Below, one piece after another: positions 200-14,026 of a DNA stretch of 14,714 nt. Position numbers and translations under genes: made by a program. Origin of the DNA: Pseudomonadota bacterium (GTDB taxonomy: Bacteria > UBA10199 > 2-02-FULL-44-16 > JBDRGF01); NCBI GenBank assembly GCA_043818055.1, contig JBDRGF010000090.1, positions 1 to 14,714 of the forward strand, written 5' to 3'. Within the stretch, counting starts at the first letter, position 1, and every line of letters begins with the position of its first letter. The notes beneath the pieces are model-generated. The model was given only the letters and a program-made list of their open reading frames with translations, ran no database searches and was not told the origin of the DNA.

Positions 200-484
200 A
201 TGAAAAACACAAAAAATATGAATGTTGCTCCAAAGGGGACGACCGGTTATCCGGAGTTGGAAAAGCTGATCGAGACGGAAAATTTCGATGAGCTCAACGA
301 AGACTTCGAAAAGGCGTTTGCTGAGCTCGACGAAATCTCAAGCAAAGGGAAATCCCTTAAAAAATCAAGAGATGCGAAGAAGGCTCTCAAGGCCATAGAG
401 CTCACGATGGAGCTTTTGAAGGAGCTTTTGGCGTTGAAATACCGCCTTCAGGAGGAGCTGAAAAATAAGAAGCAGAAGAAATAG
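200..484 (+). CDS. Small helical/coiled-coil T3SS protein, SctE (YscE/CdsE)-like needle co-chaperone candidate
   Basis: 94 aa, charged, amphipathic helices (AKKALKAIELTMELLKELLALKYRL). Lies directly upstream of a needle-like gene and a TPR gene, matching the yscE-yscF-yscG order. Assigned by synteny only. Confidence 0.55.
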   Translation: MKNTKNMNVAPKGTTGYPELEKLIETENFDELNEDFEKAFAELDEISSKGKSLKKSRDAKKALKAIELTMELLKELLALKYRLQEELKNKKQKK

Positions 485-523
485 CTCAATGAGACTGTAT
501 AACAAATCAAATTTTGCATATAA

Positions 524-595
524 TGTCATTCTGAGTGAAGCGAAGAATCTTGTTAATTCGGATACTTAAGATCCTTCGTTACACTCAGGATGACA
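524..595. repeat. Palindromic REP/MITE-like element (GTCATTCTGAG...CGAAGAATCT / AGATCCTTCG...CTCAGGATGAC type)
   Basis: Arms TGTCATTCTGAGTGAAGCGAAGAATCTT (524-551) and AAGATCCTTCGTTACACTCAGGATGACA (568-595) are imperfect reverse complements. Resembles a widespread intergenic palindrome family. Confidence 0.8.
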
Positions 596-674
596 ATGAG
601 AGTTCGGTTTTTAGGAAGAAAGGGTGAGCATGGGGGATAAAATCCACATTTATTTCATTTTTTTCCATAAATTA

Positions 675-703
675 GCAACATCAGCTATCTCACCGGCCGA
701 TAA
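675..703 (+). promoter_or_regulatory. sigma28-type promoter of the needle-like gene
   Basis: Perfect sigma28 -10 box GCCGATAA at 696-703. GCAAC at 675-679 with a 16-nt spacer, the same arrangement as at 2786-2814. SD AGAGGAG at 711-717. Confidence 0.75.
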
Positions 704-729
704 CTTGATTAGAGGAGAAAAATATCGCC

Positions 730-1233
730 ATGAATAAAGGAATCGAAAAAATAAATCCGCAAGCTATCAAGGCCAGCTCAGCCGGCATGAAGGTGGGAGC
801 ATCCAAGGATTTCAGCTCCTTTATCGGTGCTGTGAACGCCATGGGTCCGGCCGCTGTCACAGCTGGAGACATGTACGCAAAAGTCCCTGCTCAGGCTGTT
901 TTACAGGCCGCATTTTCGGGCGCAGCTCAGTCAGGTAGCGTCGGTGGTAGTACTCCGTATATGGCTTCAGGTACAGTGCCGGGAATGATGGGTGCGGGAA
1001 GCTATGCTGGTATGAAAGGTACCTCCGTTCCCGGTGGAACTGACCCTGTAGGCGCTGACGCTGGAGTCGATCAGGCGACCCTCATGAATACGATGTATCA
1101 GAACAATTTAAAGCTGCTCGAATTGCAGGCCATAATGCAGACGAATATGCAGGCCTGGAATACGAAGTCGAATATATTATCAGCAGATCACCGCGCGCGC
1201 ATGGCGATGATCGAGAAGTTTAGCACGAGATAA
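730..1233 (+). CDS. sctF: SctF-like needle/filament subunit with a long Gly/Ala-rich N-terminal extension
   Basis: C-terminal LLELQAIMQTNMQAWNTKSNILSADHRARMAMIEKFSTR aligns without gaps to the recalled YscF/PrgI C-terminal helix (LQ...YN..S.I...ILQKFP; N..SN...IIQNFR). Sits between SctE-like and TPR genes and has a strong SD. Confidence 0.6.
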   Translation: MNKGIEKINPQAIKASSAGMKVGASKDFSSFIGAVNAMGPAAVTAGDMYAKVPAQAVLQAAFSGAAQSGSVGGSTPYMASGTVPGMMGAGSYAGMKGTSVPGGTDPVGADAGVDQATLMNTMYQNNLKLLELQAIMQTNMQAWNTKSNILSADHRARMAMIEKFSTR

Positions 1234-1338
1234 TAAAAGCAAAGGCGCATCTGGTATATGGTATATTGTATATGGTGAAAACCTGGCAGGGCGGGCTTTT
1301 TACCATATGCTATATGCCATATGCTATGTACCGCTTTT
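1233..1338 (+). repeat. Heptamer-periodic inverted-repeat hairpin (TGGTATA)n / (TATGCYA)n
   Basis: Left arm tggtata tggtata ttgtata tggtgaaaa (1252-1281). Right arm tttttacca tatgcta tatgcca tatgcta (1297-1326). Most mismatches are G.U-compatible on the + strand. Outer aaaagc/gctttt pairing. Confidence 0.85.
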
Positions 1339-1349
1339 AAGGGGGTAAG

Positions 1350-1814
1350 ATGATCGAAATTCCAAGGGAAAAATTGGTTGTGATGATGGAAGCCGGCTAC
1401 CTCTTTTTGGGGATGCAGCGATATAAAGAGGCTCATCAGGTCTTTGAAGGTGTGGCGGCGCTATCTCCTGATAGCGAAGTGCCAGTTGTAGCTCTAGGTA
1501 GCCTCGCCTTTTGTCTGGGCAAATTTAACGATGCGATCAAGCTTTATGACAAGGCGCTCAAAATCGATCCCAATAGCCTCTTTGCCAAGGTATATATGGC
1601 CGAGACCCTCTTCTTCAGTGGAAAGCCTGATAAGGCGAAAAAGCTTCTGGTGGAGGTGAGCACACACGACAGGCATGGTGCGGCTGGAGACTTTGCCCGC
1701 GCTTTGAAGGATGCGATAGATGACGGTTTTACCCCCGAGTCGCTCGAGGGGCACGCGGTAAAGAAAGGTAAAGGCAATGTCAAAACGAAAAAGACCCGCA
1801 AAATTCGTTCTTAG
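1350..1814 (+). CDS. TPR protein, SctG (YscG/CdsG)/LcrH-SycD-like T3SS chaperone
   Basis: About 3 TPR motifs (EAGYLFLGMQRYKEAHQVFEG..P; LGSLAFCLGKFNDAIKLYDKALKIDP; YMAETLFFSGKPDKAKKLL). SD AAGGGGG upstream. Follows the needle-like gene. Confidence 0.75.
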   Translation: MIEIPREKLVVMMEAGYLFLGMQRYKEAHQVFEGVAALSPDSEVPVVALGSLAFCLGKFNDAIKLYDKALKIDPNSLFAKVYMAETLFFSGKPDKAKKLLVEVSTHDRHGAAGDFARALKDAIDDGFTPESLEGHAVKKGKGNVKTKKTRKIRS

Positions 1815-2754
1815 TCTTATTCTCATAGGAATGCTCTTCATCGCGGGATGCAATCGCGTTGCGATATATCACAATCTCTCTGAAGAGGATGCGAATGCGA
1901 TGATCGTCTTGTTGCAGGAAAATGGCATCGAGGCTGAGAAGGTAAGAGAGGTTCAGCAAAACGAGGTCTACTGGTCGGTAGAGGTTTCGAAAGAGGATCT
2001 CTCCCGGGCGAGGCAGCTTTTAGTACATCACAATCTACCGCGACAGAAGGCGCTCGGATTGACCGGCGTCTATAAGGAGAAGGGACTCATCCCGACACCC
2101 GATGAACAGAAGGCGAGATACCTTTTGGCGCTCAAGGGAGAGATAGTCAATTCTCTTTTGAAGATTCCTGAAATAGTCGAAATCGATGTAGTGCTGAATA
2201 TCCCGACGAAAGAAGAATTTTCTGACGATACTGGAAAATCGCAGAAGCGTCCCACCGCCTCTGTCGTAGTGAGGGTATCCCAGACGACCGATGCAAGAGA
2301 GCTGATAACCGAGAGCAAGATCAAGGAGTTCGTGGCAAATTCAGTGGAGGGTCTAAATCCACGTGATGTTGCTGTGATAATCACCTATCTCCCCGGGCCT
2401 GAAAAATTTGTCGCGACTCAGGATTACAGGCTTCCCAAAGGGGCCGCATCTTCAAAGGATGTCGTGAAGGCTAAGGATGAAAAGAGAGAATCAAAGCTCG
2501 TAGGTCTGAATTTAACCGAGGAGTCCAAGGAGCGGTTGAAGATATATCTGCTCATTTTCTTTGTCGCTCTAGTCCTGTTGTCATCGGGCTTGATAATAGC
2601 GATAGTCTATGCCTCAAGGCTGAGGAGAAAATCATCCTCCTCTGAAAGGGGATTGATCCCATCCGACAAGAGATCTGCAGTCGAGGGTGAGGTGCTTGAG
2701 GATGGCGAAGAGGAGCCTCAAGAGGGAGAGGACGACAATATTTTCCCCGAATAA
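1777..2754 (+). CDS. sctJ: T3SS inner-membrane ring lipoprotein SctJ (YscJ/PrgK family)
   Basis: Lipobox IAG-C; IYHNLSEEDANAMIVLLQENGI; LIPTPDEQKARYLLAL; PTASVVV; IKEFVANSVEGLNPRDVAV; C-terminal TM helix and acidic tail. At 325 aa it is too short for FliF. Overlaps the TPR gene by 38 nt. Confidence 0.95.
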   Translation: MSKRKRPAKFVLSLILIGMLFIAGCNRVAIYHNLSEEDANAMIVLLQENGIEAEKVREVQQNEVYWSVEVSKEDLSRARQLLVHHNLPRQKALGLTGVYKEKGLIPTPDEQKARYLLALKGEIVNSLLKIPEIVEIDVVLNIPTKEEFSDDTGKSQKRPTASVVVRVSQTTDARELITESKIKEFVANSVEGLNPRDVAVIITYLPGPEKFVATQDYRLPKGAASSKDVVKAKDEKRESKLVGLNLTEESKERLKIYLLIFFVALVLLSSGLIIAIVYASRLRRKSSSSERGLIPSDKRSAVEGEVLEDGEEEPQEGEDDNIFPE

Positions 2755-2785
2755 GATGAGAATTTGATTTTTTTCTTTGAAAGAC

Positions 2786-2814
2786 GCAACTTTGGGTATG
2801 AAGCCCGCCGATAC
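2786..2814 (+). promoter_or_regulatory. sigma28-type promoter of the 142-aa ORF
   Basis: GCAAC (2786-2790), 16-nt spacer, GCCGATAC (2807-2814). Same architecture as 675-703. Confidence 0.7.
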
Positions 2815-2848
2815 TATATTTGAGACGTAATCAATACCTGGAGAAAAT

Positions 2849-3277
2849 ATGCAATTTAAGTCGATACAACCAAATCTTGTGCGCTATCAGATGAGAATGG
2901 TTCAGGGGGAAAATCCCCACGAACAGGCTCAGAAACGTCCCGGCGCATTTGGCCGGTTTCTTTCAGGCTTTGGCAAGATTATGGGGGCTGTTGCGGCTCC
3001 TCTTTCGTTCATCTTCCCGCCCGCTGCTATAGGTGCTGCTGGTATGTATGGGCTAGGTCAGATAGGTGATCAGGTGCAGGCCCGTGCTTATACGCGCCAG
3101 ATTGAAAATGTTCAGAAGCAAAAGGCCATGCAGATATCCTTCCCGGGTTTGGGTAATGCTCAGGGAAATGTCGATCCGGTGACCTATGGTGTCTCGATGC
3201 AGGATCAACAGGTTACCAATGTATTGTTTCAAAGGGATGCTGCATTGAATGATATGAATCAAAAGCTCCTTAAGTAG
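2849..3277 (+). CDS. Hypothetical protein with a hydrophobic Gly/Ala segment; candidate late T3SS substrate (tip/translocator/filament-associated)
   Basis: 142 aa, SD GGAG at 2840-2843. Amphipathic-hydrophobic stretch GAFGRFLSGFGKIMGAVAAPLSFIFPPAAIGAAGMYGLG. No Sec signal. Has its own sigma28-type promoter. Confidence 0.7.
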   Translation: MQFKSIQPNLVRYQMRMVQGENPHEQAQKRPGAFGRFLSGFGKIMGAVAAPLSFIFPPAAIGAAGMYGLGQIGDQVQARAYTRQIENVQKQKAMQISFPGLGNAQGNVDPVTYGVSMQDQQVTNVLFQRDAALNDMNQKLLK

Positions 3278-3290
3278 AGGTTTGAGGATT

Positions 3291-3695
3291 ATGGTAGAAA
3301 AGGTTAAAAAACAACGTGTTAGCCATCCACAGTTAAAGATAGTTCCTAATGAAATAAGGGACTTGGCCAAGACTTCAGAGGGATCTAAACTTTCAAGAAA
3401 GGGTGAGCTTGCCAGCCGTTTTAAAGAATTGCTGGGTAGAAGGCAGTTTCCTGCTACAGCCGAATTGACCGCTGAAGAGAGGAAGGAGATATTATATGAT
3501 CTCGTCGCTATACGAAAAAAAGGTGAGACCCCATTTATTCCTGAGACCCCAAAAGAGGCCCAGATGTTGAGAGATGGCTTCGAAAGGTATCATAATCTTC
3601 CTGAGAATATGAAAGTGGATCTCACAAGAAAAGGAATTACACCTCAAACCTTCGCACTCTTTTTTTCAATGCTGCAAAAATTTAAGAAGGGCTAA
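3291..3695 (+). CDS. Hypothetical basic helical protein
   Basis: Open frame 3282-3695. ATG at 3291 follows GAGG/GAGGA SD-like sequence and is the likelier start (134 aa). No recognised domain. Confidence 0.65.
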   Translation: MVEKVKKQRVSHPQLKIVPNEIRDLAKTSEGSKLSRKGELASRFKELLGRRQFPATAELTAEERKEILYDLVAIRKKGETPFIPETPKEAQMLRDGFERYHNLPENMKVDLTRKGITPQTFALFFSMLQKFKKG

Positions 3696-3696
3696 T

Positions 3697-3920: not shown

Positions 3921-3931
3921 GAGTTTAAGGT

Positions 3932-4008: not shown

Positions 4009-4034
4009 AGTTTAAATCAGAGGCTATTTCCAAG

Positions 4035-4050
4035 TGGCACGGAACATGCA
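4035..4050 (+). promoter_or_regulatory. sigma54 (RpoN) -24/-12 promoter
   Basis: TGGCACGGAACATGCA matches TGGCACG-N4-TTGCW with one mismatch and correct GG/GC spacing. Lies 30-40 nt upstream of the sigma factor start. Confidence 0.8.
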
Positions 4051-4091
4051 AGCTTAAATCTGCGACCAGATAACTTTACATGGGGGTAGTG

Positions 4092-4994
4092 ATGGCAAGT
4101 TTACCGGCGAAGAAGATGAAAAAAAGAATACCTTCCAAATTGGAGCTTGAGGACAAGGCGCGTCGAAAGGCGGCCGCCGAAGTCACAGCTGCAATCGAGC
4201 ATGGGAAGCGAAAGAGGGGCCCGATTCATTTTACTAAGAAGGAGATGGGTTTGTTGAGAAAGCGCGACGAACTCATCGCACAGTATATGCCCTTTGCCGC
4301 CTCCATCGCGAACAGAGTTTGTCAGACACTCTCATCCGCAGTCGATCATGATGAGGTTATGTGCAACGCGAGATTGGGACTTCTCGAAGCGGCCAAGAGA
4401 TTCGATCCGAAACAGGAGGTCGATTTCAGAACTTACGCGTATTATAGGATCAAAGGCTCGATATATGACGGTTTGCGCCGCAGCGGATGGCTGCCGCGCA
4501 CCTTGTATGCCAAGGTCAGGTTTGAAGAAGCGGCCAGCGAATATCTGCAGAACAAGGCCTATGGCGCTCAGAAGGATGATGTTTTGCTCAGCAAAACAGA
4601 TGAGGAGATAGCCGATACCGTAAACCAGCTGGCATCGATCTATATTGTATCTTTAGAAGGGAGCGAGGAGTGTGAAAACCTTGAAGAGAAGAGCTCGGAG
4701 ATGGATGTCGAACGCAGGGCGGAATTCATGCAGGTTCGTAAATATATGAGGGCTGCGATAGCCGATCTTCCCGACAAGGAGAAGAAGCTGATCATGATGT
4801 ATTATTTTCAGAACAGAACTCTCGAAGAGATAGGAAAGAGGCTAGAGCTGTCGAAGTCATGGGTCTCGAGACTCCATGCGAGGGCGCTTGAGATGATGCT
4901 TAAGAGGATTAAGACGCTCGCTACTCAGACGATAAGCGATAATAGCGAATCGACGTTCGATACATCCGATGTATCCGAGACGTTCGATTTATAA
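4092..4994 (+). CDS. fliA: RNA polymerase sigma factor, FliA/WhiG (sigma28) family
   Basis: Region 2 RDELIAQYMPFA...GLLEAAKRFDP...FRTYAYYRIKGSIYDGLRRSGWLPR. Region 4 AIADLPDKEKKLIMMYYFQNRTLEEIGKRLELSKSWVSRLHARAL. ATG 4092 has a GGGGG SD; alternative start at 4080. Confidence 0.9.
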   Translation: MASLPAKKMKKRIPSKLELEDKARRKAAAEVTAAIEHGKRKRGPIHFTKKEMGLLRKRDELIAQYMPFAASIANRVCQTLSSAVDHDEVMCNARLGLLEAAKRFDPKQEVDFRTYAYYRIKGSIYDGLRRSGWLPRTLYAKVRFEEAASEYLQNKAYGAQKDDVLLSKTDEEIADTVNQLASIYIVSLEGSEECENLEEKSSEMDVERRAEFMQVRKYMRAAIADLPDKEKKLIMMYYFQNRTLEEIGKRLELSKSWVSRLHARALEMMLKRIKTLATQTISDNSESTFDTSDVSETFDL

Positions 4995-5021: not shown

Positions 5022-5498
5022 ATGACTGTAATAAGCAAAGTCGGTGCAAAAACTGTTCAAAAGGCTTTTCAGGAGAGCCAAAAGCTCGCGAAGCCGCTCG
5101 ATAACGCAACCACTTTCAAGGATCTTATGAAGCAGGCGGACGATGGCAAAGAGTTTGCCAAGTCGCTGGGTATGAACAACGATGGCGCCGCGAAGACGAT
5201 TGAAACTATCGATGCGAAGGATGTGGCTTTCGATGCCGGCGATCTCACTTCGAATTCAAAGGGTCCGGATGGCAAGGAGAGGTTCGTTGAAATGTTATGT
5301 GAGATAAACAAAGGCCAGATGCACATGGATCAACTGGTTAATCATGTTCTTTACAGCGGAAAGAAATTCACGAATCAGGAGATGCTTGTGATACAGGCTC
5401 ATGTCTATCATTATGCACAGATGACAGAGATGACGGTGAAAGTAGCGGAACAAGGTGTAAACTCTGTTAAGACAGTGCTCAATACACAGGTTCAGTAA
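5022..5498 (+). CDS. sctI: T3SS inner rod protein SctI (YscI/HrpB2-like)
   Basis: C-terminal FTNQEMLVIQAHVYHYAQMTEMTVKVAEQGVNSVKTVLNTQVQ fits the inner-rod pattern (LL.lQ......EL..K........V..L). SD GGAG. Lies upstream of sctK/L/N. Confidence 0.75.
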   Translation: MTVISKVGAKTVQKAFQESQKLAKPLDNATTFKDLMKQADDGKEFAKSLGMNNDGAAKTIETIDAKDVAFDAGDLTSNSKGPDGKERFVEMLCEINKGQMHMDQLVNHVLYSGKKFTNQEMLVIQAHVYHYAQMTEMTVKVAEQGVNSVKTVLNTQVQ

Positions 5499-6544
5499 TG
5501 GGGGAATCGAATATCATGGGAACGCTCGAAAGACATAAAGTATTAGCCGCGATGATCGTGAAGGGTAAGGTCGATGATTACACTCCACTCGTCGATGCCC
5601 TCTCCCCTGAGGAGAAAAATCCTGTGAAAGAGTATATCAAAGAGCTGATGAATGAATCCGATGCCAGATACGCGGCTCTTGCCGAGATAAAAAAATTAAA
5701 GGCCAAACGCGATTTCAGGGACCTCGAGAAGGTTCACCCTGGATGGATACTTTACGCGCTGAGAGATGAATCTCCAAGGGTGATAGGCATTATCTTAAGA
5801 TATCTTCCTTCAAGGCAGGTCAGATACATAGTGCAGAACCTCCCGCCAAAGACCAGGGAGAGCCTTCCCCATATGGTGGAATCGTTTGCTGTTCCTTCAG
5901 AGGTGCTGGAGTTAGTTAAGAAAAAATTTATGGAGAGGTTTTCTTTTTTGAGTCCCGCCGTATCGGGTACGATTGCAAATCTCACAGCTGTCGATGGGGA
6001 AGGGGTAATGTCGATCGTTAAAGAGCTTGGAATAATGGAGTTGGGATTTGCGTTGTCAGGGCTCTCTAAACCATCGATGAAGATTCTCTATAATCGTTTA
6101 AAATTGAAGGATGCAAAAAAACTTAGGCAAAGGATTGTCGGATTTGAAGATGATTCCGCTTTAAGAAGGGAAGCGCGCTTCGCCCTTTTGGATATGAATT
6201 TAAAAGAGGAGGGCGAGGAGGAGCTTATACTAGAGATGGGGCTCAATTTTTTATCGAGGGCTATTTTGAAGGGTGATTCTTCGAGTGTCGATGTCATCTC
6301 CCAGAAGTTGCCCCCTCAATTTGGTTACAAGTTTAAACGCAAGGTCACTGAGAATTCAGTCTCCGTTAATGAAGAAAATGTGAAAAAAAGACTTAAGATC
6401 GTCTCAAAGCTTCTTTCTGATATGAGAAACGACCTGGTGATGGAGCTGAGCGATGACGAGGATACCGCGAGTTTTATATCCGAAACAGTTAACAGTTTAC
6501 AGTTTACAGTTAAAACCATCAGATATAATATCGAAAAACTGTGA
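5498..6544 (+). CDS. SctK-position sorting-platform protein with FliG middle/C-domain-like repeats
   Basis: VHPGW (SctK-type HPSW motif) is followed by LRDESPRVIGIILRYLP (FliG-M RDEHPQIIATIL-like) and VDGEGVMSIVKELGIMELGFALSG...KDAKKLRQRI (FliG-C-like). Located between sctI and sctL, with TAATG coupling to sctI. Confidence 0.7.
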   Translation: MGESNIMGTLERHKVLAAMIVKGKVDDYTPLVDALSPEEKNPVKEYIKELMNESDARYAALAEIKKLKAKRDFRDLEKVHPGWILYALRDESPRVIGIILRYLPSRQVRYIVQNLPPKTRESLPHMVESFAVPSEVLELVKKKFMERFSFLSPAVSGTIANLTAVDGEGVMSIVKELGIMELGFALSGLSKPSMKILYNRLKLKDAKKLRQRIVGFEDDSALRREARFALLDMNLKEEGEEELILEMGLNFLSRAILKGDSSSVDVISQKLPPQFGYKFKRKVTENSVSVNEENVKKRLKIVSKLLSDMRNDLVMELSDDEDTASFISETVNSLQFTVKTIRYNIEKL

Positions 6545-6585: not shown

Positions 6586-7260
6586 GTGGCAAAAATCGTA
6601 AAACAAAAGGACTTAAAAAAGACGGATAAATCCGCCCCTGCCGTTTCGAAGAGTTTCGTCAGCCCTATAGTCGGAAAGGGAGGCATCGTTGATAAAAAGG
6701 TGCTGGCTGCCGGGGGTAAGGCGGAGGATATTCTGAAACAGGCCCAGGTCGAAGCTGAAAAGATAAGAGCCGAGGCTGAAAAAATAAAAACGGGCATTGA
6801 ATCAGCAAGAGAAAAGGCAAAAAAAGAGGGATTTGAGTCGGGACGCGAAGAGGGATTGCAGGTCTTTACTGAAAAGGTAATACAGCTGGAAAGGGAGCGT
6901 GAGGCATTTTTTGAAGAGGCGCAGGATGAAGTGATGAAACTCGTCATGTCTATCGCCGAAAAGATCATCGGCAAGCTAGTCTTGCAACACGAAGGGATTA
7001 TAGAAGTTGTCGTGCGTCAGGCGCTGGAGCGGGCGATCGGCGACAGAATAACAGTGCGCCTCAATCCGGATGACTATAAAGAGATAACCGATAAGGGTGT
7101 TGGATTTGGCGATATCATCGACAGGACGAGAAGGCTCACCTTTCGTGAGGATGAATCGATCGAACGCGGCGGATGTGTTGTTGAGACCGAGGTTGGAACG
7201 ATCGACGCGAGGCTCGAGACGCAGCTTAAGGCGATTCGCAAAACGCTCGGGGTGGGATGA
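6586..7260 (+). CDS. sctL: T3SS stator protein SctL (FliH/YscL family)
   Basis: GTG start with AGGAG SD (6576-6580). AxxxGxxxG repeats ([13 protein letters not shown]), [27 protein letters not shown] overlap with the ATPase gene. Confidence 0.92.
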
Positions 7261-8638: not shown

Positions 8639-9151
8639 ATGGCTGAAAAATACCGCCTACAGCCTATTTTGACCGTGAGAAAGAGGGTGAAGAGACAAGC
8701 TGAAATTCAGCTCTCTATCGCCCTCAAAGAGTTCAAAGAGGCGAAGGAAAAACTTAAAAAACTCGAGGAAGAGAAGGCAGAAATTGTAAAGGCGTGGAAG
8801 GCTAAGAGGCGCGAGATGGAAAAAGAGATGGGGCGCGGGGCTTTTATCGGCGAAGGAAATCGCTTTGTGAATTTTTTAAGGAAATTAAAAGAGGATCAGG
8901 AGAAGAAGGAGAAGGAGATAGAAAAACAGAAAGCTGCGATAGAGAAGGCCAAGGAGAACGTGGCGAAGTGCAGAAGAAAATATATCGATGCGTGCAAATC
9001 GCTTCAGACGATGGAGAAACATAAGGAGTTGTGGGAGAAGAAACAAAAGGATATACTGACGAAAAAAGAGGAAAAGGAAATGGATGAACTCTCAAGAACA
9101 ATTCATTCATTAAAAAAATGGCGCGGCGAAAAGTCAGTGTTTGAAAATTAG
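8639..9151 (+). CDS. sctO: T3SS stalk protein SctO (FliJ/YscO-like)
   Basis: Lys/Glu coiled coil with N-terminal YRLQPILTVRKR and MEKHKELW...EEKEMDE. Directly follows sctN. Confidence 0.85.
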   Translation: MAEKYRLQPILTVRKRVKRQAEIQLSIALKEFKEAKEKLKKLEEEKAEIVKAWKAKRREMEKEMGRGAFIGEGNRFVNFLRKLKEDQEKKEKEIEKQKAAIEKAKENVAKCRRKYIDACKSLQTMEKHKELWEKKQKDILTKKEEKEMDELSRTIHSLKKWRGEKSVFEN

Positions 9152-9216: not shown

Positions 9217-10008
9217 ATGACCAAAAGAACAAAAGACGTTGAAAAACCGAAGGAACCAATAGCTTCTCAATACAACTATAAGCCGAAGCCGAAGGCAAAA
9301 GATCAGAAGAGCAAGTTCGACAAGCTTCTCGAGCAGAAACAATTCAAACAGAGCTCCACCGTACAGGATTCCTCGCTTTTCAGAAAGACAGCGACAGAGC
9401 AGGCCGTAGGCCAGGCTCGTTCGCAGGATCAGGGGGATCGGGAGAAGAGGGATGAGAAGAAGGAGTTTCAGAAGAAAGATGGCGACGAGAGGTCGTCGGA
9501 AAAGAGGTCGGAATCTGGTCAGAAGGTAGGCGCTAAGCAATCGCTGAAGGACCAAAAGCAGCAGGGCGGATCGCAGAACAAGCAAGGCGGCAAGGGTTTT
9601 GGCATGGCAAAGAGGGGTGTTGTAGAGAAAAAGGGATTGGAGCAGAAGGGAAAGAGCGACACCTCTGTCGTAGCAAAGGGAAAATTCGCAAGGGAGCTGG
9701 CACAGAGTTTAAAGGATTTGTCCTCAACTCGCGCGAAGAGTGTCGATCAGGAAGTATTAAATGAAATCGTAAAATACGTGAAACTTGCTAAGAACGATAA
9801 CGATGAGAAGGAGATGGAGATTCATTTCAGGGATAAGCTCTTCAAGGGGTTGAAGCTCAAAGTTGCATCGACGGGAAAGGGTAGGGTCAGCGTCCACTTT
9901 TCATCCTCCGATTCCGAGACGAGAAGGATATTTGATTCGAACAAAAAGCGTATTGTAGATGCTTTGGGGAAACAAGGAATAGAGGTTGATGAGATTAGTG
10001 TTAGCTGA
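9217..10008 (+). CDS. sctP: Needle-length control/substrate-switch protein SctP (FliK/YscP-like)
   Basis: Long low-complexity K/Q/E/S N-terminus plus a C-terminal FliK-type domain (EMEIHFRDKLFKGLKLKV...GRVSVHFSSSDSETRRIFDSNKKRIVDALGKQGIEVDEISVS). Conserved position between sctO and sctQ. Confidence 0.75.
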   Translation: MTKRTKDVEKPKEPIASQYNYKPKPKAKDQKSKFDKLLEQKQFKQSSTVQDSSLFRKTATEQAVGQARSQDQGDREKRDEKKEFQKKDGDERSSEKRSESGQKVGAKQSLKDQKQQGGSQNKQGGKGFGMAKRGVVEKKGLEQKGKSDTSVVAKGKFARELAQSLKDLSSTRAKSVDQEVLNEIVKYVKLAKNDNDEKEMEIHFRDKLFKGLKLKVASTGKGRVSVHFSSSDSETRRIFDSNKKRIVDALGKQGIEVDEISVS

Positions 10009-10023: not shown

Positions 10024-10953
10024 ATGACTATCAAACCATTCAAACTCAAATTGAAAAAAGTCACCGAGAGGGATATCCTGTGGGTATCATCCCTTTTTGA
10101 GCTCCCCTCCCATCTGGGATTGAATCCCACTATCACAGAGGATATTACAAATATTGTTTCGAGGCAGATCGGCGTAAATATGCGGATGGAGCTCGATAAT
10201 TATCAGAGGGAGACGTTCGGTGCTTTGAAGAAGAGGTTTGCGCACACATTTTTCGGTTTTTCATCCGAGATGATTCCCGATTCGCTTGATATCGTAACCC
10301 AGCTCGACATACCCTTCACCCTCATGATGGTGGAGCGGCTTCTTGGTAGTTCCAAGACGACATTTCCACATCCGAGGGATCTGACAGAGATCGAACAGGG
10401 GGTCTTTCAATATCTGATTTTAAATATCCTCTCAGAGATTCACAAAACTTTAAAGGCCAAGAGCAAAACGAGATTTCTTTTTAAAAAATATATCATCGGA
10501 GAACAGGACTTGAGCAGGACTTTTGAGCCTGATGAGGAGATGGTGGTTCTCAACTACCGCATTTGGGTGGGCGATAACTGTGGTTTTGTCAGAATTCTTT
10601 TTCCATTCTCTCTGATCGATAAAGTCGGATCTGTCCCCGAAGAGATGTCAGAGTTCAGTGAAGAGCGCTTACAACTGGTCGAACAAAATCTTGAGAGTTT
10701 CGGTTATCTCAACACATTGATTTGGGCAGAGGCAGGCAGAAGCAACGTTTCAGGAGCCGACTGCGGGGGCCTTGAAGAGGGGGATGTGGTCATCTTCGAT
10801 ACTTCCGAGATCGATTTTAAAGATGGCAAGCCAGGTGGTAATCTCATATTGCGTGTCGGCGACGGATTGGCTCTTGGCCTCTTGTCAGATTTTGAATTTG
10901 CCGGAAAAAATGATATAAAGTGTAAGATAAAAAAGTTATACAGAGGAGACTAG
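10024..10953 (+). CDS. sctQ: Cytoplasmic ring protein SctQ, FliM-like large subunit
   Basis: FliM-middle-like LDIPFTLMMVERLLGS...RDLTEIEQGVF...GFVRILFP, then a SpoA-like C-terminus (IWAEAGRSNVS...LEEGDVVIFD). Confidence 0.8.
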   Translation: MTIKPFKLKLKKVTERDILWVSSLFELPSHLGLNPTITEDITNIVSRQIGVNMRMELDNYQRETFGALKKRFAHTFFGFSSEMIPDSLDIVTQLDIPFTLMMVERLLGSSKTTFPHPRDLTEIEQGVFQYLILNILSEIHKTLKAKSKTRFLFKKYIIGEQDLSRTFEPDEEMVVLNYRIWVGDNCGFVRILFPFSLIDKVGSVPEEMSEFSEERLQLVEQNLESFGYLNTLIWAEAGRSNVSGADCGGLEEGDVVIFDTSEIDFKDGKPGGNLILRVGDGLALGLLSDFEFAGKNDIKCKIKKLYRGD

Positions 10954-11014: not shown

Positions 11015-11069
11015 TGTACCTGTCCTCAATATAATATAATAAAAAACTAAACAGATGAGGTGCTAAATT

Positions 11070-11576
11070 ATGCCAAGGCGCAAGAAGGAAGAAAAACCCG
11101 AAGAGGGAAGCGGTTTTGATGATAATTTTGATGAGTTCGACGAGCTCGAAGAGGAAAAGCCTGAAACTTCGGAGGATACAGATCCGATAGAAGAGGGAGA
11201 ATCTGAAGAGGAGGAGTTAGGCGAAGACCTCTTCGATGAAGATGCCTCCGAGGCTGAATCTGAAGAGGTAGAAGCGGCGCCTGAAGAAGAACTGCCCTCA
11301 ATCGAAGATGAAACACCGATGGAGGATGAATCATCAAAGGAGAATATCGCCTTCGAATCTTCACCCGATGTCGCAGTTCAACTCGTCGCCGTGATGGGAA
11401 AGAGAAAACTTAGCTTGAGGGATATTCTGGATCTTAAACTGGGCTCAGTCGTAGATCTAAAAAGGCCTCCCAATGAGACAGTCGATCTGGTAGCTAACGG
11501 CAAGCTGATCGCCAGAGGCGAACTCGTCGAGATAGAAGGAAAGTTGGGAGTTAAGATATTGAAGATAGTGAGGTAG
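11070..11576 (+). CDS. FliN/SctQ-C SpoA-domain protein with a long acidic N-terminal extension
   Basis: C-terminal SpoA domain DVAVQLVAVMGKRKLSLRDILDLKLGSVVDL...VDLVANGKLIARGELVEIEGKLGVKI. First ~96 aa are nearly half Asp/Glu. SD GAGG. Confidence 0.88.
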   Translation: MPRRKKEEKPEEGSGFDDNFDEFDELEEEKPETSEDTDPIEEGESEEEELGEDLFDEDASEAESEEVEAAPEEELPSIEDETPMEDESSKENIAFESSPDVAVQLVAVMGKRKLSLRDILDLKLGSVVDLKRPPNETVDLVANGKLIARGELVEIEGKLGVKILKIVR

Positions 11577-11653
11577 TTTGTAGTTCACAGTTCACAGTTT
11601 ACAGTGAACTGTGAAAACTTCGACCACATAGCTTTTACTGTAAACTGTAAACT
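11574..11653 (+). repeat. Heptamer inverted-repeat hairpin (YAGTTYA)n / (ACTGTAA)n
   Basis: tagtttg tagttca cagttca cagttta cagtgaa (11574-11608) and actgtaa actgtaa act (11637-11653). Same unit family as 6485-6575. Begins at the stop codon of the FliN-like gene. Confidence 0.85.
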
Positions 11654-11669
11654 TTATAATGGGGGATTT

Positions 11670-12026
11670 ATGTTTTTCAGTCCATTACTCACAGCTGCTG
11701 TTTCTACTGTAGAGGCGACGCCATCCACCACCATTGATTTTACATGGCTCTTTCTAAAGATGGTCATCTTTTTGGTGATCGTCATCGTGTTAGCGCTCAT
11801 CTTTCTCAAATACGGTGCCCCGAGATTGCGTAAAACTATGGGGATCGAGGGATACTTTGAAATTTTGGGGAGAAAAAGGCTGGAGGGAAGAAAAGTCCTC
11901 TATTTTGTTAAGGGGCCTGAAAGATATTTCGTGATCGGAGTCGCGGAACATGGTATAAGTAAAATCGCCGAATATAAATTAGATGAAATAGAAGGGGTGG
12001 GGGGAGATGCTCAGTCAAAGAAATAA
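11670..12026 (+). CDS. fliO: FliO-family membrane protein (export-gate assembly chaperone)
   Basis: TM helix (WLFLKMVIFLVIVIVLALIFLKYG) then FliO-type beta domain FEILGRKRLEGRKVLYFVKGPERYFVIGVAEHGISKIAE. Between the FliN-like gene and sctR. ATG 11670 has a GGGGGA SD, whereas the ORF-track start at 11604 lies in the repeat. Confidence 0.8.
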   Translation: MFFSPLLTAAVSTVEATPSTTIDFTWLFLKMVIFLVIVIVLALIFLKYGAPRLRKTMGIEGYFEILGRKRLEGRKVLYFVKGPERYFVIGVAEHGISKIAEYKLDEIEGVGGDAQSKK

Positions 12027-12789
12027 AAAGAGCCTTAAACTTTTCGTCGGTGTCGGCGTTGTCCTTTTAACTCTATCAATAAGCTCCATTGCGCATGCCC
12101 AGAACGTGGCCGCAATGAGCGTCTCAAAGCCGCTCGTGCTCTTGGGGCTGCTCGCATCTTTGGCGCTGGTTCCTTTCATGGTCATGATGGTGACCTCGTT
12201 TGTCAAGATAGCGGTCGTCCTCTCTTTGGTCAGAAATGCGATCGGCACGCAGCAGGTGCCGCCTAATATCGTCGTCACAGGCCTTGCTGTGATACTCACG
12301 ATTTACATAATGGCGCCAGTCGGGCAGGAAATTTACAGCTCTGCTAAAGGTGTTATTAATCAGGGGAGTAATCAGCCGATGATGTCGCAGGCGACGGTCA
12401 AGCTTCTCCTCGAAGGGGTTGAAAAGGGAAAGGGGCCAGTTCGCGCATTTCTCCTCAAACATTCCCATGAGAAGGAACAAAATCTCTTTTACAATCTCGG
12501 TTTGAAGCTGGAGAACGATCCAAAGAAGAAGGATGAGATTAAAAAAGAGGATTTTATAAATCTCATCCCAGCCTTCGTCGTGAGCGAACTAGCCGAAGCC
12601 TTTCAGATCGGTTTCATAATCTTTTTGCCATTTTTGGTGATAGATCTTGTCATAGCCAACATTCTTCTTGCCTTGGGCATGTTCCAGATCTCGCCGATCA
12701 CTATTTCGTTGCCGTTTAAGCTCTTGCTATTTGTGCTGGTAGATGGCTGGCACCTCATAGCGAGAGGATTGATATTGGGGTATGTCTGA
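12007..12789 (+). CDS. sctR: T3SS export apparatus protein SctR (FliP/YscR family)
   Basis: MMVTSFVKIAVVLSLVRNAIGTQQVPPN, LIPAFVVSELAEAFQIGFIIFLPFLVIDL..ANILLALGM, PITISLPFKLLLFVLVDGW. N-terminal signal-peptide-like segment ending AHA. Confidence 0.96.
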   Translation: MLSQRNKKSLKLFVGVGVVLLTLSISSIAHAQNVAAMSVSKPLVLLGLLASLALVPFMVMMVTSFVKIAVVLSLVRNAIGTQQVPPNIVVTGLAVILTIYIMAPVGQEIYSSAKGVINQGSNQPMMSQATVKLLLEGVEKGKGPVRAFLLKHSHEKEQNLFYNLGLKLENDPKKKDEIKKEDFINLIPAFVVSELAEAFQIGFIIFLPFLVIDLVIANILLALGMFQISPITISLPFKLLLFVLVDGWHLIARGLILGYV

Positions 12790-13055
12790 TGTCGGGATAT
12801 TTTGTCGCCATAGCAAAACAGTCTCTGTTTTTGGTACTGATTCTCACAGGGCCACCGGTGCTAATCGCCATGGTAGTCGGTTTGACCATCAGTATTCTCC
12901 AGGCGACGACTCAGATTCAGGAGCAGACGCTGACTTTTGTGCCAAAGCTCTTTTCAGTTGTTCTCGTCCTGGCTATCGGGGGACCATGGATGCTTGCGCA
13001 GCTGATAGGTTTTACCATTTCCCTTTATGAAGCAATCCCGACGTATGTGCATTGA
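12789..13055 (+). CDS. sctS: T3SS export apparatus protein SctS (FliQ/YscS family)
   Basis: VGLTISILQATTQIQEQTLTFVPKL motif, 88 aa, TGATG coupling with sctR. Confidence 0.96.
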   Translation: MSGYFVAIAKQSLFLVLILTGPPVLIAMVVGLTISILQATTQIQEQTLTFVPKLFSVVLVLAIGGPWMLAQLIGFTISLYEAIPTYVH

Positions 13056-13059
13056 GTTT

Positions 13060-13121
13060 ATAAAAACAAAGGCGCATGTAGCATGTGGCATGTAGGATGT
13101 AGTAAAGCCATGCAACATGCG
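13060..13121 (+). repeat. Heptamer repeat (GCATGTR)n with a short inverted arm, preceded by the leader ATAAAAACAAAGGCGCAT
   Basis: gcatgta gcatgtg gcatgta ggatgta (13074-13101), then gccatgcaacatgcg (13107-13121). The 18-nt leader at 13060-13077 matches 1233-1250 at 17/18 positions. Confidence 0.8.
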
Positions 13122-13132
13122 ATTTTTCCCCA

Positions 13133-14026
13133 ATGAATGATATCCTATCCAAAATTGGCGTTAATATAAATGTTACTTTTGCCCTCATCTTTTTTTCACT
13201 TCTTTGGGTGCGCGTGTTGGGAATGGCGATCATGATTCCCTTCCTCTTTGGCAAGCCGGTGCCGAAATATGTCGTCGTTGGGTCGGCTTCAGTTTTGGCG
13301 ATATTTTTGTTTCCGTACCTCATGCCTGCAACTCAACCTGACCTCACAAATGATTTCCTGATGCTCTTCATGCTCTATCTCAAGGAGGCCTTTTACGGTA
13401 TAGTCATGGGGTTTTCAGTCGCTATATTTTTCTATGGATTTCAGGCGGCTGGCCAGATGATCGATGGCCAGCGGGGTATGTCTATAGCCAGATCGATACT
13501 GCCTCAGCTGGGGGAGCAGAGCGCCCTCTCCGGCATCCTGCTCTTTCAGATGGCGGTCGTCCTCTATTTGAGTTTTGGCGGTCATCTCGTATTTTTAGAT
13601 TCATTTATGATGAGTTACAAGGCGTTGCCTGTGCTCGAGTTTCCTCAGGTGGGGCCGGGACTCTTTCCCCTCATGGATCTATTCGCCCGCATCACTGGGG
13701 AGGTGCTCTATATTGCCGTCCAGATAGCTGCCCCAATAATGATAGCGATATTCGTAGCCGACATAATCTTAGGTCTGTCAAACCGTATAGCCCCTCAAAT
13801 AGATGTCTGGATGCTCGGTTTTAATATCAAGGGCTATGTCGGAATCCTGCTCTTCTTTACAGCACTTGGGATGATAGGGAATCAGGTATATAATTATACC
13901 CAAAAATCAGTTATTTACGTTGAAACAGCTAAAAAGTTACTTGAAGGTAAGCCCGACGAAGTTCAGCTCGAACTCGACAAAAATATCGAGGATATCAAGC
14001 TGCCGATGGAGGTTATTACGAAGTAG
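13133..14026 (+). CDS. sctT: T3SS export apparatus protein SctT (FliR/YscT family)
   Basis: Multi-TM protein: RVLG..P, LKEAFYG, AAGQMIDGQRG, GGHLVFLDSFMMSY..LP, IAAP....DIILGLSNRIAPQIDV. Follows sctS. Confidence 0.95.
   Translation: MNDILSKIGVNINVTFALIFFSLLWVRVLGMAIMIPFLFGKPVPKYVVVGSASVLAIFLFPYLMPATQPDLTNDFLMLFMLYLKEAFYGIVMGFSVAIFFYGFQAAGQMIDGQRGMSIARSILPQLGEQSALSGILLFQMAVVLYLSFGGHLVFLDSFMMSYKALPVLEFPQVGPGLFPLMDLFARITGEVLYIAVQIAAPIMIAIFVADIILGLSNRIAPQIDVWMLGFNIKGYVGILLFFTALGMIGNQVYNYTQKSVIYVETAKKLLEGKPDEVQLELDKNIEDIKLPMEVITK

Follow-up and report, generated by a model that had tools for sequence, protein, structure and literature searches.

The contig analysed here (C90; the window is this whole contig of 14,714 nucleotides, 14.7 kb) carries the core cluster of a non-flagellar type III secretion machine that has retained flagellar-type parts. 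The cluster is a single + strand operon spanning 200-14026, in which a SctE/F/G-like trio, SctJ, a FliA-like sigma factor, a SctI-like and a FliG-like protein, SctL/N/O/P, FliM-like and FliN-like proteins, FliO and SctR/S/T follow one another. The system has no dedicated secretin, that is, no outer-membrane pore of its own. Far from being rare, it is found in almost all members of one small uncultured phylum.

Operon organization and genomic context

Gene calls are based on open reading frame (ORF) translations and on Pfam and NCBIfam profile searches of the window.

200..484, + strand: g01, helical, 94 aa, positional candidate for a SctE-like co-chaperone (ORF)
730..1233, + strand: g02, 167 aa, candidate SctF-like (needle) axial protein (alignment, hhalign)
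1350..1814, + strand: TPR chaperone, SctG/LcrH-SycD-like (TPR_2 51.7 bits)
1777..2754, + strand: SctJ inner-membrane ring lipoprotein, 325 aa (YscJ_FliF 83.7 bits)
2849..3277, + strand: g05, 142 aa, conserved, hydrophobic Gly-rich segment 44-62 (ORF, TM prediction)
3282..3695, + strand: g06, 137-aa ORF, in a rapidly evolving slot ahead of the sigma gene (ORF)
4080..4994, + strand: FliA/WhiG-type (sigma-28-like) sigma factor (TIGR02479 138.6 bits, under the 189.6 cut-off)
5022..5498, + strand: g08, SctI (inner rod)/FliE-like candidate (family alignment, weak profile matches)
5498..6544, + strand: FliG-like protein at the sctK position (FliG_M 28.3 bits, cut-off 25)
6586..7260, + strand: SctL/FliH stator (FliH 78.4 bits)
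7257..8627, + strand: SctN/FliI ATPase (FliI_clade2 649.2, SctN 631.6 bits, both over cut-off)
8639..9151, + strand: SctO/FliJ stalk (YscO-like 69.9, FliJ 31.1 bits)
9217..10008, + strand: SctP/FliK-type length-control or substrate-switch protein (Flg_hook 32.0 bits, C-terminus)
10024..10953, + strand: FliM-like (SctQ-type) cytoplasmic ring protein (FliM 38 bits)
11070..11576, + strand: FliN-like (SctQ C-terminal type), acidic N-terminal half, separate gene (FliMN_C 73.7 bits)
11604..12026, + strand: FliO, start codon uncertain (FliO 24.2 bits, cut-off 22)
12007..12789, + strand: SctR with FliP-like signal peptide (yscR 239 vs fliP 200.4 bits)
12789..13055, + strand: SctS/FliQ (Pfam, NCBIfam, identity comparison)
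13133..14026, + strand: SctT/FliR (Pfam, NCBIfam below curated cut-off, identity comparison)
14052..14714, + strand: g20, signal-peptide protein, runs off the contig end (ORF, signal-peptide prediction)

Every gene named in the initial annotation is present on this strand and all operon frames are intact. SctJ, SctT, SctL, the FliA-like sigma factor and the FliN/SctQ protein score below NCBIfam curated cut-offs. The host genome has a moderate GC content (43%) and belongs to a little-studied lineage, as had been surmised. The terminal gene g20 has no homologue in related loci and lies outside the conserved system. The genome is a binned assembly, 93.6% complete with 2.7% contamination, and contigs C12, C154, C88 and C159 are therefore assigned to the organism by binning; synteny in relatives backs the placement of C12 and C154. 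One RNA library covers 27 of the 30 bins, coverage that is not proof of transcription.

Membrane-ring, ATPase-complex and export-gate proteins

SctJ displays a lipobox cysteine at position 25, a C-terminal transmembrane segment (259-277) and a cytoplasmic tail of 48 residues, and scores 140.9 bits against TIGR02544 (cut-off 161.95); at 325 residues it is not FliF-sized. The Walker A motif of SctN reads AAAGVGKS in translation, the counterpart of SctP in Edaphobacter also matches HpaP, and FliO harbours a transmembrane segment at 49-67 (TIGR03500 38.6 bits, below cut-off). The signal peptide ascribed to SctR corresponds to a hydrophobic N-terminal segment (residues 10-28) with AHA-Q after it. 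The gate proteins are nearer to AscR/S/T than to flagellar proteins: SctR is 50% identical to AscR versus 39-45% to FliP, SctS 55% to AscS versus 39-50% to FliQ, and SctT 32% to AscT versus 25-28% to FliR.

The mosaic described in the initial annotation is real, with a SctJ-type lipoprotein alongside FliO and FliA-, FliG-, FliM- and FliN-like genes. Rod, hook, flagellin and mot genes, also said to be missing, are absent from the window; Flg_bb_rod, the one family of this set searched genome-wide, returned 0 matches in the 93.6% complete genome.

Axial-protein candidates and their chaperones

The order of the trio at 200-1814 matches ascE-F-G...J. In that order g01 takes the place of ascE; 12 own-phylum loci have a homologue of it at the corresponding position, and it matches no Pfam or NCBIfam family. 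The g02 family combines a Gly/Ala/Ser-rich N-terminal half with a conserved C-terminal helix: hhalign aligned its C-terminal 44 columns with AscF and MxiH (E 0.0015, probability 17%), an atlas lead placed g02 in a cluster with T3SS_needle_F in 11% of members (score 0.91), the AF2 model contains only helix 115-166 (pLDDT 53.6), and 0/9 family members match the Pfam needle family. The TPR chaperone, which scores below cut-off for LcrH_SycD (39.7 bits), CdsG (28.1) and SctY (27.4), is paralogous to two TPR chaperones on contig C12. For g08, T3SS_basalb_I matches are sub-threshold in 3/9 family members (E 0.0037-0.086), FliE appears at E 4e-4 in 1/9, and hhalign against SctI references gives a probability of 2%. 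The identities of g02 as SctF and of g08 as SctI are tentative; for the SctE/F/G trio named initially the order holds, with weak profile and hhalign support.

Two further ORFs accompany these genes. g05 has homologues in 14 loci and no family in Pfam or NCBIfam. g06 has no homologue among 80 related loci, and the ORFs in its slot in four relatives are unrelated to g06 and to one another; a FlgM-like anti-sigma role for it is speculation.

A proposed flagellum-like cytoplasmic platform

The protein in the sctK slot resembles both FliG and PscK, a likeness based on its AF2 model (pLDDT 85.8): the top 12 Foldseek rows are all FliG (E 0.013-0.2), and VIA gives Z 10.7 for FliG_M and Z 8.1 for PscK over 161/179 residues. 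The FliM-like protein scores 36.3 bits against fliM_switch, and the FliN-like protein 74.1 against SpaO_YscQ and 64.9 against fliN, all below cut-off.

Docking offers weak support for contact between the FliG-like protein and the cytoplasmic domain of a SctD-like protein encoded on C154. The median score is 0.36 (runs 0.36, 0.00 and 0.69) and the best of three controls 0.00; runs share at least 8% of contacts, with partner pLDDT of at least 66. The docking mark is reached by 116/157 solved complexes and 2/215 mismatched pairs; at scores ≤0.60 it is reached by only 18/157 solved complexes and by both of the 2 mismatches.

Parts on other contigs and the missing secretin

The search for sctU, sctV, sctD and sctC proposed initially located sctU, sctV and a SctD-like gene on other contigs. 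sctV and sctU are single, unlinked genes, the former beside rpsU-yqeY-dnaG-rpoD and the latter beside an STK-PEGA kinase and a FHA-GGDEF protein. The SctD-like protein on C154 has the layout FHA(35-125)-TM(189-207)-TPR-PEGA, and in 8 relatives its gene immediately precedes g01. Contig C12 carries X1-TPR-X2-TPR, two substrate/TPR-chaperone pairs, which immediately follow sctT in at least 10 relatives. All three secretins encoded by the genome lie in loci for other machinery, namely T2SS, type IV pilus (PilMNOPQ) and Tad, and a secretin gene occurs in 0/80 related loci.

An ordinary injectisome would build a needle, borrow the T2SS, PilQ or Tad RcpA secretin or use an unrecognised pore, and deliver effectors into eukaryotic hosts, for example protists. 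The SctF-like candidate with its E/G-like chaperones fits such a machine, the two pairs of substrate and class II chaperone look like translocator modules, and the large effector-like orphan set resembles the arsenals of host-associated bacteria; Abby and Rocha (PMC3459982) report at least three recruitments of secretins. This reading is nonetheless unlikely: none of the 80 related loci holds a secretin, known translocators have strong transmembrane segments that X1 and X2 lack (the best prediction is a single segment of score 1.69, in X2), g02 is only a needle candidate, and the present data bear no sign of a eukaryotic host.

Promoters, sigma factors and regulon

Three promoter motifs lie in the window.

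675..703, + strand: sigma-28-type promoter GCAACA-N15-GCCGATAA, upstream of g02 (motif)
2786..2814, + strand: second sigma-28-type promoter, upstream of g05 (motif)
4035..4050, + strand: sigma-54 promoter TGGCAC-N5-ATGCA, upstream of the FliA-like gene (motif)

The sigma-54 promoter ahead of the FliA-like gene, and the sigma-28-type promoter at 85 genome sites, are new here. The former motif lies within 200 nt upstream of the gene in 12/20 loci (0.003 expected per window), and the genome encodes RpoN and a FHA-sigma-54 activator. A tblastn search of the genome for sigma-28-type genes returned the FliA-like gene alone. The strict sigma-28-type motif precedes g02 in 5/9 loci and g05 in 6/14. A looser pattern has 93 genome matches versus 4-9 in shuffles that preserved mononucleotide content only. 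Own-phylum loci contain 18 matches to the motif (0.3 expected) and acidobacterial loci 33 (0.1 expected), an enrichment not seen in flagellar loci, which have 0 (0.3 expected).

Downstream of 74 of the 85 strict sites an ORF of 100 aa or more starts within 5-129 nt. Signal-peptide-like N-termini are found in 5/64 long motif-linked ORFs against a background of 24%, and 26 of the 40 largest motif-linked proteins have no Pfam family. The list also holds housekeeping genes (YidC, two MFS transporters, a transposase), and some motif sites are therefore not effectors.

Distribution and phylogeny

The SctJ gene is present in 89/93 genomes of the phylum and in 62/63 high-quality ones. Gene order is conserved across 24 families, with the operon order kept in 26 own-phylum loci. 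A sister SctJ-type gene occurs in 21/201 sampled Acidobacteriota, among them the cultured Edaphobacter aggregans, whose locus has this set of parts together with sctU and sctV and whose genome has no rod domain. In five genomes a SctN orthologue (72-77% identity) coexists with a separate FliI (49-51%). That the machine is a degenerating remnant of a flagellum or injectisome, devoid of present secretion function, might be read from the absent secretin, the scattered sctU and sctV and the components below curated cut-offs; such decay is very improbable given intact frames, the order and gene retention across the phylum, conserved promoters, the separate flagellar set in the five genomes and short tree branches.

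In a concatenated SctN+R+S+T tree, the clade sits outside the sampled flagella and four canonical injectisome families. Flagella separate from the rest with SH-aLRT 100, the four families form one clade (100), and the secretin-less clade has support 94 and short branches. The tree is a quick search with 11 flagellar rows, 9 of them close kin, and contains no Myxococcus, Chlamydia or Desulfovibrionales rows; it is unrooted, and three clusters alone cannot show a shared injectisome ancestor. Deep nodes of the SctN-only tree have supports of just 17 and 34.

The clade could instead have arisen from a flagellum independently of the injectisome lineage, its SctJ-, SctD- and SctK-like features being parallel or acquired. 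Consistent with this, SctN scores slightly higher with the FliI than with the SctN model (649 vs 632 bits), the system keeps FliG-, FliM-, FliN-, FliO- and FliA-like parts as well as a sigma-54-to-sigma-28 cascade, deep SctN nodes are weak and the concatenated tree cannot place the root. A separate exaptation is quite unlikely, however, in the face of a Ysc-type operon order, the short SctJ-type lipoprotein, the YscO-like and HpaP/FliK-type proteins, the LcrH-type chaperones and the nearness of SctR/S/T to AscR/S/T.

Proposed machine and comparison with known systems

The following account of build, export and control, as an ancestral, vertically kept phylum trait with a sister form in some Acidobacteriota, is likely as a whole. 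SctJ and the unlinked FHA-TM-PEGA SctD-like protein would form the inner-membrane rings, and SctRST, assisted by FliO, would form the export gate with the unlinked SctU and SctV, powered and fed by SctL/N/O. The FliG-like protein, as a stand-in for SctK, would compose a flagellum-style platform with the FliM-like and FliN-like proteins. The SctI-like g08 and the SctF-like g02, the latter held by g01 and the TPR chaperone, may yield at most a short rod. The cargo would include X1 and X2, both helical and each paired with a dedicated LcrH-like chaperone, and probably many of approximately 70 proteins, mostly unknown, that lack signal peptides. Control may resemble the flagellar cascade: Ser/Thr-kinase signalling would act on the FHA-domain sigma-54 activator, the FliA-like gene and the X1 module would be transcribed from sigma-54 promoters, and the FliA-like sigma factor would read GCAACTT-N14-15-CCGATAA promoters.

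The interpretation first offered is partly supported: the non-flagellar system with flagellar-type parts, the lack of a dedicated secretin, the little-studied, moderate-GC lineage and the branching outside four canonical injectisome families and the sampled flagella hold; the kinship with the Myxococcales systems and the role in predation or symbiosis suggested with it are conjectural. By analogy with the Myxococcus T3SS*, the favoured action would be contact-dependent, directed at other cells and exerted jointly with the Tad or type IV pilus apparatus. The D-E-F-G-J...(K)-L-N-O-P-Q-R-S-T order is that of Ysc-type operons, and the machine is in part built and regulated like a flagellum, so that it may illuminate how injection machines arose from flagella.

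Gene content of the operon

The genome that holds the window is a 2.93-Mb assembly of 166 contigs, 93.6% complete and 2.7% contaminated; its GC content of 43% agrees with the moderate value judged by the initial annotation. The window fills the whole of contig C90 and forms a single gene array on the forward strand. Searches against Pfam and NCBIfam identified, in this order, a TPR chaperone, an SctJ lipoprotein, a FliA/WhiG-type sigma factor, a FliG_M protein, SctL/FliH, an ATPase, a YscO-like stalk, a protein with a FliK-type C-terminus, a FliM-like protein, a separate FliN-like protein, FliO, SctR, SctS and SctT. The original observation of a mosaic of flagellar and non-flagellar parts at 200..14026 is therefore correct. 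The features to which the text refers are as follows.

200..484, forward strand, g01, ORF without family
730..1233, forward strand, g02, ORF without family
1777..2754, forward strand, SctJ
4035..4050, putative sigma-54 promoter
4080..4994, forward strand, FliA-like sigma factor
5022..5498, forward strand, g08, ORF without family
5498..6544, forward strand, FliG-like protein
11604..12026, forward strand, FliO
12007..12789, forward strand, SctR
14052..14714, forward strand, last ORF, truncated by the contig end

SctJ (325 aa, lipobox Cys25) belongs to the short lipoprotein ring type and stands in place of FliF, as first noticed, no FliF-sized match being present in the genome. It scores 83.7 bits with YscJ_FliF and reaches E 3.9e-41 with TIGR02544, at 140.9 bits below the cut-off of 161.95; its 48-aa tail, considered as a FliF-like anchor for FliG, is only weakly conserved. 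The ATPase exceeds the cut-offs of both FliI_clade2 (649.2 bits) and SctN (631.6 bits). SctR has a signal-peptide-like N-terminus and scores 239 bits with yscR versus 200.4 bits with fliP. In NCBIfam, SctN, SctR and SctS lie above their Sct cut-offs and SctT below its own. The FliA sigma factor of the initial annotation was recovered as a FliA/WhiG-type gene, though its 138.6 bits with TIGR02479 fall short of the 189.6 cut-off. The TPR chaperone matches LcrH/SycD, CdsG and SctY, all sub-threshold.

No family match in Pfam or NCBIfam was obtained for the ORFs g01, g02, g05, g06 and g08 or for the last ORF, which is truncated. An SctN scan with one genome per species yielded 517 relatives; in the best 80, which were retained for comparison, g06 and the last ORF are not conserved. 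A role of g06 as FlgM-like anti-sigma factor was set aside as speculation: it has no family match and no homologue in the 80 loci, and its positional counterparts are unrelated. The last ORF, cut off by the contig end, codes for a protein with a signal peptide and is without homologue in the related loci, which carry a substrate module starting with the putative substrate X1 at this position, 3' of sctT. The contig break after sctT may hide a rearrangement or an assembly gap.

Distribution in UBA10199 and Acidobacteriota

Among the best 80 of the 517 relatives, 26 loci with 73–88% identity show the same operon order as the window, 36 with ~60–69% identity, mostly from Acidobacteriota, contain a related gene set, and 18 with ~55–61% identity look flagellar. 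The 26 loci are labelled at NCBI as Deltaproteobacteria, Myxococcales, Pseudomonadota or 'bacterium'; such 'Deltaproteobacteria' genomes are presumably those placed by GTDB in a candidate phylum. The closest relative (L011:11348-12724) has two extra ORFs between sctN and sctO, one of them with a retropepsin-like aspartyl protease domain.

The phylum of the window, UBA10199, comprises 93 species genomes in one class and 24 families. An SctJ gene is present in 89 of the 93, and in 62 of the 63 genomes of high quality. A FliF-sized match besides SctJ occurs in 11 genomes. Five of these were examined, and each contains an SctN orthologue (72–77% identity) together with a distinct FliI (49–51%); the system is therefore not the flagellum of the phylum.

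An SctJ-type gene was also found in 21 of 201 evenly sampled genomes of Acidobacteriota. In the cultured Edaphobacter aggregans DSM 19364 the locus runs from kinase, PP2C, sigma factor, SctJ and SctL/N/O/P to an FHA-FliM/FliN fusion, FliO, SctRSTU, a TPR protein and SctV, so that a Ser/Thr kinase and a PP2C phosphatase share the locus with the fusion. The N-terminal fusion of an FHA domain to the FliM/FliN (SctQ-type) protein, of 483–499 aa, is seen in the acidobacterial-type loci (L033:12381-13832 and L053:2886-4385), and a kinase homologue is present in 15 of the 36 loci of this type. Linkage of the export gate genes among the loci drawn from the best 80 of 517 stands at 0/26 for sctU and 1/26 for sctV in UBA10199, and at 25/36 and 15/36 in the acidobacterial type. 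No description of the system was found in the literature on UBA10199 with type III secretion or on T3SS and injectisomes in Acidobacteriota; Abby and Rocha, in the available portion of their article, mention Acidobacteria for flagella only (PMC3459982).

Components encoded elsewhere in the genome

A genome search located one sctU and one sctV, both off the window. The single FlhA/SctV gene adjoins rpsU, yqeY, dnaG and rpoD and does not neighbour the Tad genes. The single FlhB/SctU gene adjoins a Ser/Thr kinase with PEGA domains and an FHA-GGDEF protein; this pair (C88:5221-7931, locus L007) is divergent from the orphan sctU, and the PEGA of the kinase is C-terminal. In the same locus (C88:12596-19465), 3.4 kb downstream of sctU, lies the gene of a 2289-aa Tc-toxin B/C-like protein with SpvB, TcdB middle/N, FG-GAP and RHS-repeat domains.

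Three secretins are encoded in the genome, one each in the T2SS, PilMNOPQ and Tad operons. All of them belong to other contexts, no dedicated SctC was detected in this 93.6% complete genome, and none of the 80 related loci (best 80 of 517 relatives) includes a secretin; the view of a system without a dedicated secretin is thereby upheld. The pilMNOPQ operon, on contig C127, adjoins genes for ATP-citrate lyase, isocitrate dehydrogenase and aconitase (L009:4838-9377), which hint at a reductive TCA cycle. The rod/hook domain Flg_bb_rod has no match in the genome, as expected from the annotated lack of a flagellar rod, and none in E. aggregans.

Two further modules were reached via genes that flank the operon in relatives, the linkage between contigs of this genome being given by binning and by synteny in relatives. 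On contig C154, a 716-aa SctD-like protein combines a canonical FHA domain (35-125), one transmembrane segment (189-207) and periplasmic TPR and PEGA domains. This topology is that of SctD, and in eight relatives the gene lies directly 5' of g01, which makes it a candidate sctD. On contig C12, the putative substrates X1 (374 aa) and X2 (304 aa) are each followed by a TPR chaperone, and this module lies directly 3' of sctT in at least 10 relatives. Attempts to name X1 through a protein atlas gave scores all below 0.8, which is chance level, and the matches to NolX, LcrV and a chlamydial effector are leads only. No relation between g02 and the X1 family was found by hhalign (probability 1.7%).

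Gene order and axial candidates

The locus order D-E-F-G-H-I-J-(K)-L and N-O-P-Q-R-S-T of Aeromonas salmonicida asc is matched here by (SctD-like)-g01-g02-TPR-SctJ ... g08-FliG-like-SctL, the SctD-like gene being upstream in relatives, and by SctL-N-O-P-FliM-like-FliN-like-FliO-R-S-T. By position, g01 corresponds to E, g02 to F, the TPR protein to G and the FliG-like protein to K.

The SctE/F/G-like trio of the initial annotation fits by gene order, but the needle match of g02 is of low confidence. The g02 family has a conserved C-terminal helix, and this helix aligns end to end with needle proteins in hhalign (E 0.0015, probability 17%); synteny and a protein-atlas lead point toward the needle SctF as a candidate. 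The Pfam needle family matches none of nine g02 family members, and the AF2 model of g02 has a low pLDDT of 53.6. The SctI assigned earlier corresponds to g08, for which sub-threshold SctI matches exist in three of nine members (and a FliE match in one of nine), but the hhalign comparison with SctI references covers only 21 columns at 2% probability. Profiles of g02 and g08 met nothing meaningful among PDB sequences, the best E of 0.1–0.2 belonging to unrelated proteins. The assignments of g02 to SctF and of g08 to SctI are weak.

The FliG-like protein at the SctK position

The FliG-like protein noted at first sight passes Pfam FliG_M with 28.3 bits (cut-off 25), and its AF2 model is confident (pLDDT 85.8). 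The top 12 Foldseek rows are all FliG, none reaching E 0.001. An independent structure search matched the FliG middle domain with Z 10.7 (rmsd 1.9, 79/80 residues), full FliG with Z 10.6 and 9.1, and the FliG C-domain with Z 7.5; it also matched PscK, an SctK (PDB 6uie), with Z 8.1 over 161/179 residues, the fold being all-helical. The gene is placed like sctK, after the sctJ/sctI positions and before that of sctL, and its product has a PscK-like all-helical fold. Unlike SctK, the protein is still above the FliG_M threshold and closer to FliG middle domains than to PscK. Docked on the cytoplasmic domain of the SctD-like protein, the model scored 0.36 versus 0.00 for the control, weakly supporting such a pairing. 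A chlamydial SctK candidate has been linked to the FliG, YscK, OrgA_MxiK and HrpB4 families in the accessible part of a preprint (10.1101/2025.03.14.643159); 'FliG' was not found in the portion at hand of the preprint on the PscK structure.

Phylogeny

In an SctN-only tree (65 rows, quick search), UBA10199 forms a group with support 99, as it does together with the acidobacterial-type rows (99), and eight named injectisome ATPases fall together (99); the deep nodes, with supports of 17 and 34, are unresolved. A concatenated tree of SctN, SctR, SctS and SctT (44 rows, 1049 columns, quick search), which is unrooted, thinly sampled and without rows from Myxococcus, Chlamydia and Desulfovibrionales, sets 11 flagellar rows apart from all others (support 100). 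Aeromonas, Shigella, Ralstonia and Sinorhizobium form one group on a long stem of 1.2 (support 100), and the UBA10199 and acidobacterial-type rows form a clade with short branches (support 94). Identity to AscR/S/T amounts to 50% for SctR, 55% for SctS and 32% for SctT, and to FliP/Q/R to 39–45%, 39–50% and 25–28%, respectively. Because of these tree groupings and pairwise identities, the clade is, as judged from an unrooted and thinly sampled tree, placed outside four crown families as well as outside the sampled flagella. Of the deep-branching position first put forward, it is this separateness that the tree supports.

Promoters and predicted regulon

The putative sigma-54 promoter at 4035-4050 precedes the FliA-like gene. 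The motif recurs before this gene in 12 of 20 loci and before X1 in 7 of 11, with an expectation of 0.003 per upstream interval searched. The genome encodes RpoN and an FHA-sigma-54-activator-HTH protein 73% identical to the activator beside the substrate module of a relative.

A second motif, GCAACTT-N14-15-CCGATAA, stands in front of g02 and g05: its -10 element is of the sigma-28, GCCGATAA-type, and its -35 element is GCAACTT. Apart from the FliA-like gene, no sigma-28-type gene was found in the genome. The sigma-28 consensus has TAAA at -35; a search with the canonical pattern TAAA-N13-17-GCCGATAA, at up to two mismatches, gave a single intragenic match in the window. The strict form of the GCAACTT motif has 85 sites genome-wide, and a looser form has 93 matches versus 4–9 in shuffles. 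Observed versus expected occurrences are 18 versus 0.3 in UBA10199 loci, 33 versus 0.1 in acidobacterial loci and 0 versus 0.3 in flagellar loci.

At 74 of the 85 strict sites an ORF of at least 100 aa begins 5–129 nt downstream; the regulon is a prediction from the motif. Signal-peptide-like N-termini are found in five of its 64 ORFs of at least 200 aa, versus 24% of background ORFs. In composition, the N-termini favour Pro, Gln, Ser and Asn and contain little Leu and Glu. Among the 40 largest ORFs, 26 lack a Pfam family and FHA domains occur in three; a few members are housekeeping genes (YidC, two MFS transporters). The predicted regulon includes only three small paralogue families, the largest being a trio of 305–340 aa on contig C14, whose sigma-28-type promoters lie at 872-899, 7796-7823 and 13724-13751, two of the three almost letter-identical.

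FHA domains occur in the SctD-like protein, three regulon proteins, the sigma-54 activator and the FHA-GGDEF protein, and PEGA domains in the SctD-like protein and the kinase next to sctU. The sharing of these domains across proteins of the system suggests that it may be under phospho-threonine control.

In a groundwater metatranscriptome (RNA run X2, unrelated to the protein X2), contigs of at least 95% likeness cover 27 of 30 window bins and leave three without cover; contigs of an RNA library are no proof of transcription. RNA runs X9 and X10 contain next to nothing of the window, and DNA runs of groundwater and biofilm metagenomes hold parts of it.

Interpretation and significance

The operon and its unlinked partners would together form a functional type III exporter of the inner membrane, with a cytoplasmic platform and a control circuit in the style of a flagellum. 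Its axial structure would be short at most, and a large dedicated cargo set would be available to it. By analogy, we infer a contact-dependent action on other cells. A more ambitious joint reading is tentative and, taken as a whole, doubtful: the clade might preserve a transitional state from flagellum to injectisome, with the FliG-like protein as a surviving intermediate toward SctK and the flagellar sigma-54-to-sigma-28 hierarchy carried over, now driving a needle-like protein and ~70 orphan effectors, and the entire phylum might make its living by attacking or attaching to other cells on contact, through a machine that lacks its own secretin.

For the transition from flagellum to injectisome, a single and poorly understood intermediate is known, the needle-less and secretin-less T3SS* of Myxococcus. 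To this is now added another group of secretin-less systems, which is large and evolves slowly (SctJ in 89/93 genomes of the phylum and about a tenth of the sampled Acidobacteriota) and shows more flagellar features: the SctK slot is taken by a FliG-like protein, FliM-like and FliN-like proteins are separate, FliO is present, and there is a sigma-54-to-sigma-28-type cascade. The relation of FliG to SctK can now be put to the test, as can the exports of such machines, because a conserved promoter marks ~70 candidate substrate genes. With a sister locus in E. aggregans DSM 19364, a cultured and harmless soil bacterium, genetics, secretome work and cryo-ET are feasible.

Comparison with known systems

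A sigma-54/sigma-28 hierarchy controls flagella in polar flagellates. The system resembles a flagellum in its FliG-, FliM-, FliN- and FliO-like parts, the signal peptide on its FliP homologue, the GCCGATAA-type -10 element and the sigma-54 control of a sigma-28-type gene. Unlike a flagellum, it has SctJ lipoprotein in the place of FliF, no FliF and no rod domain, and GCAACTT instead of TAAA at -35; moreover, the true flagellar FliI of the same phylum is only 49–51% identical.

With the Ysc/Psc/Asc family, exemplified by A. salmonicida asc, it shares the gene order D-E-F-G-(H-I)-J-(K)-L and N-O-P-Q-R-S-T, and SctR, SctS and SctT are most similar to AscR/S/T among the references used. In contrast to that family, SctC, pilotin, gatekeeper, tip and recognisable translocon genes are absent here, the system has FliO, a FliG-like protein, FliM/FliN as a split pair and a regulator of sigma-28 type, and the SctD-like protein has a canonical FHA and periplasmic PEGA/TPR domains.

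The T3SS* of M. xanthus (MXAN_2434-2464), the 'Myxo' group of Abby and Rocha 2012, has been proposed as a flagellum-injectisome intermediate (PMC3459982). According to the portions of the sources available, it lacks a secretin and, by standard profiles, needle and translocon; it has SctD, J, I, Q, RSTUV, N, L and several LcrH-like chaperones (PMC10433427), as well as FliO (PMC12248157), and acts with a Tad machine in prey killing (PMC10849154, PMC12248157, PMC10433427). Compared by description, the system reported here is alike in the lack of a secretin, in its SctD-like, SctJ, SctI-like and SctQ-type proteins, LcrH-like chaperones and FliO, and in having no needle or translocon by standard profiles. 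Its genome also holds a Tad locus; the statement in a review, in the part accessible, that T3SS* and Tad co-occur only in Cystobacterineae (PMC10849154) would thus need revising. Unlike T3SS*, it belongs to another phylum, where it is nearly universal, and its sctU and sctV are unlinked. No Myxococcus-named locus is among the best 80 of the 517 SctN relatives. Further features here, set beside Myxococcus loci known by description only, are an own FliA-type sigma factor with a large predicted regulon, a recognisable FliG-like protein, separate FliM-like and FliN-like genes and the E/F/G-like trio. By gene content, and with no kinship implied, the Myxococcus T3SS* is the closest described counterpart.
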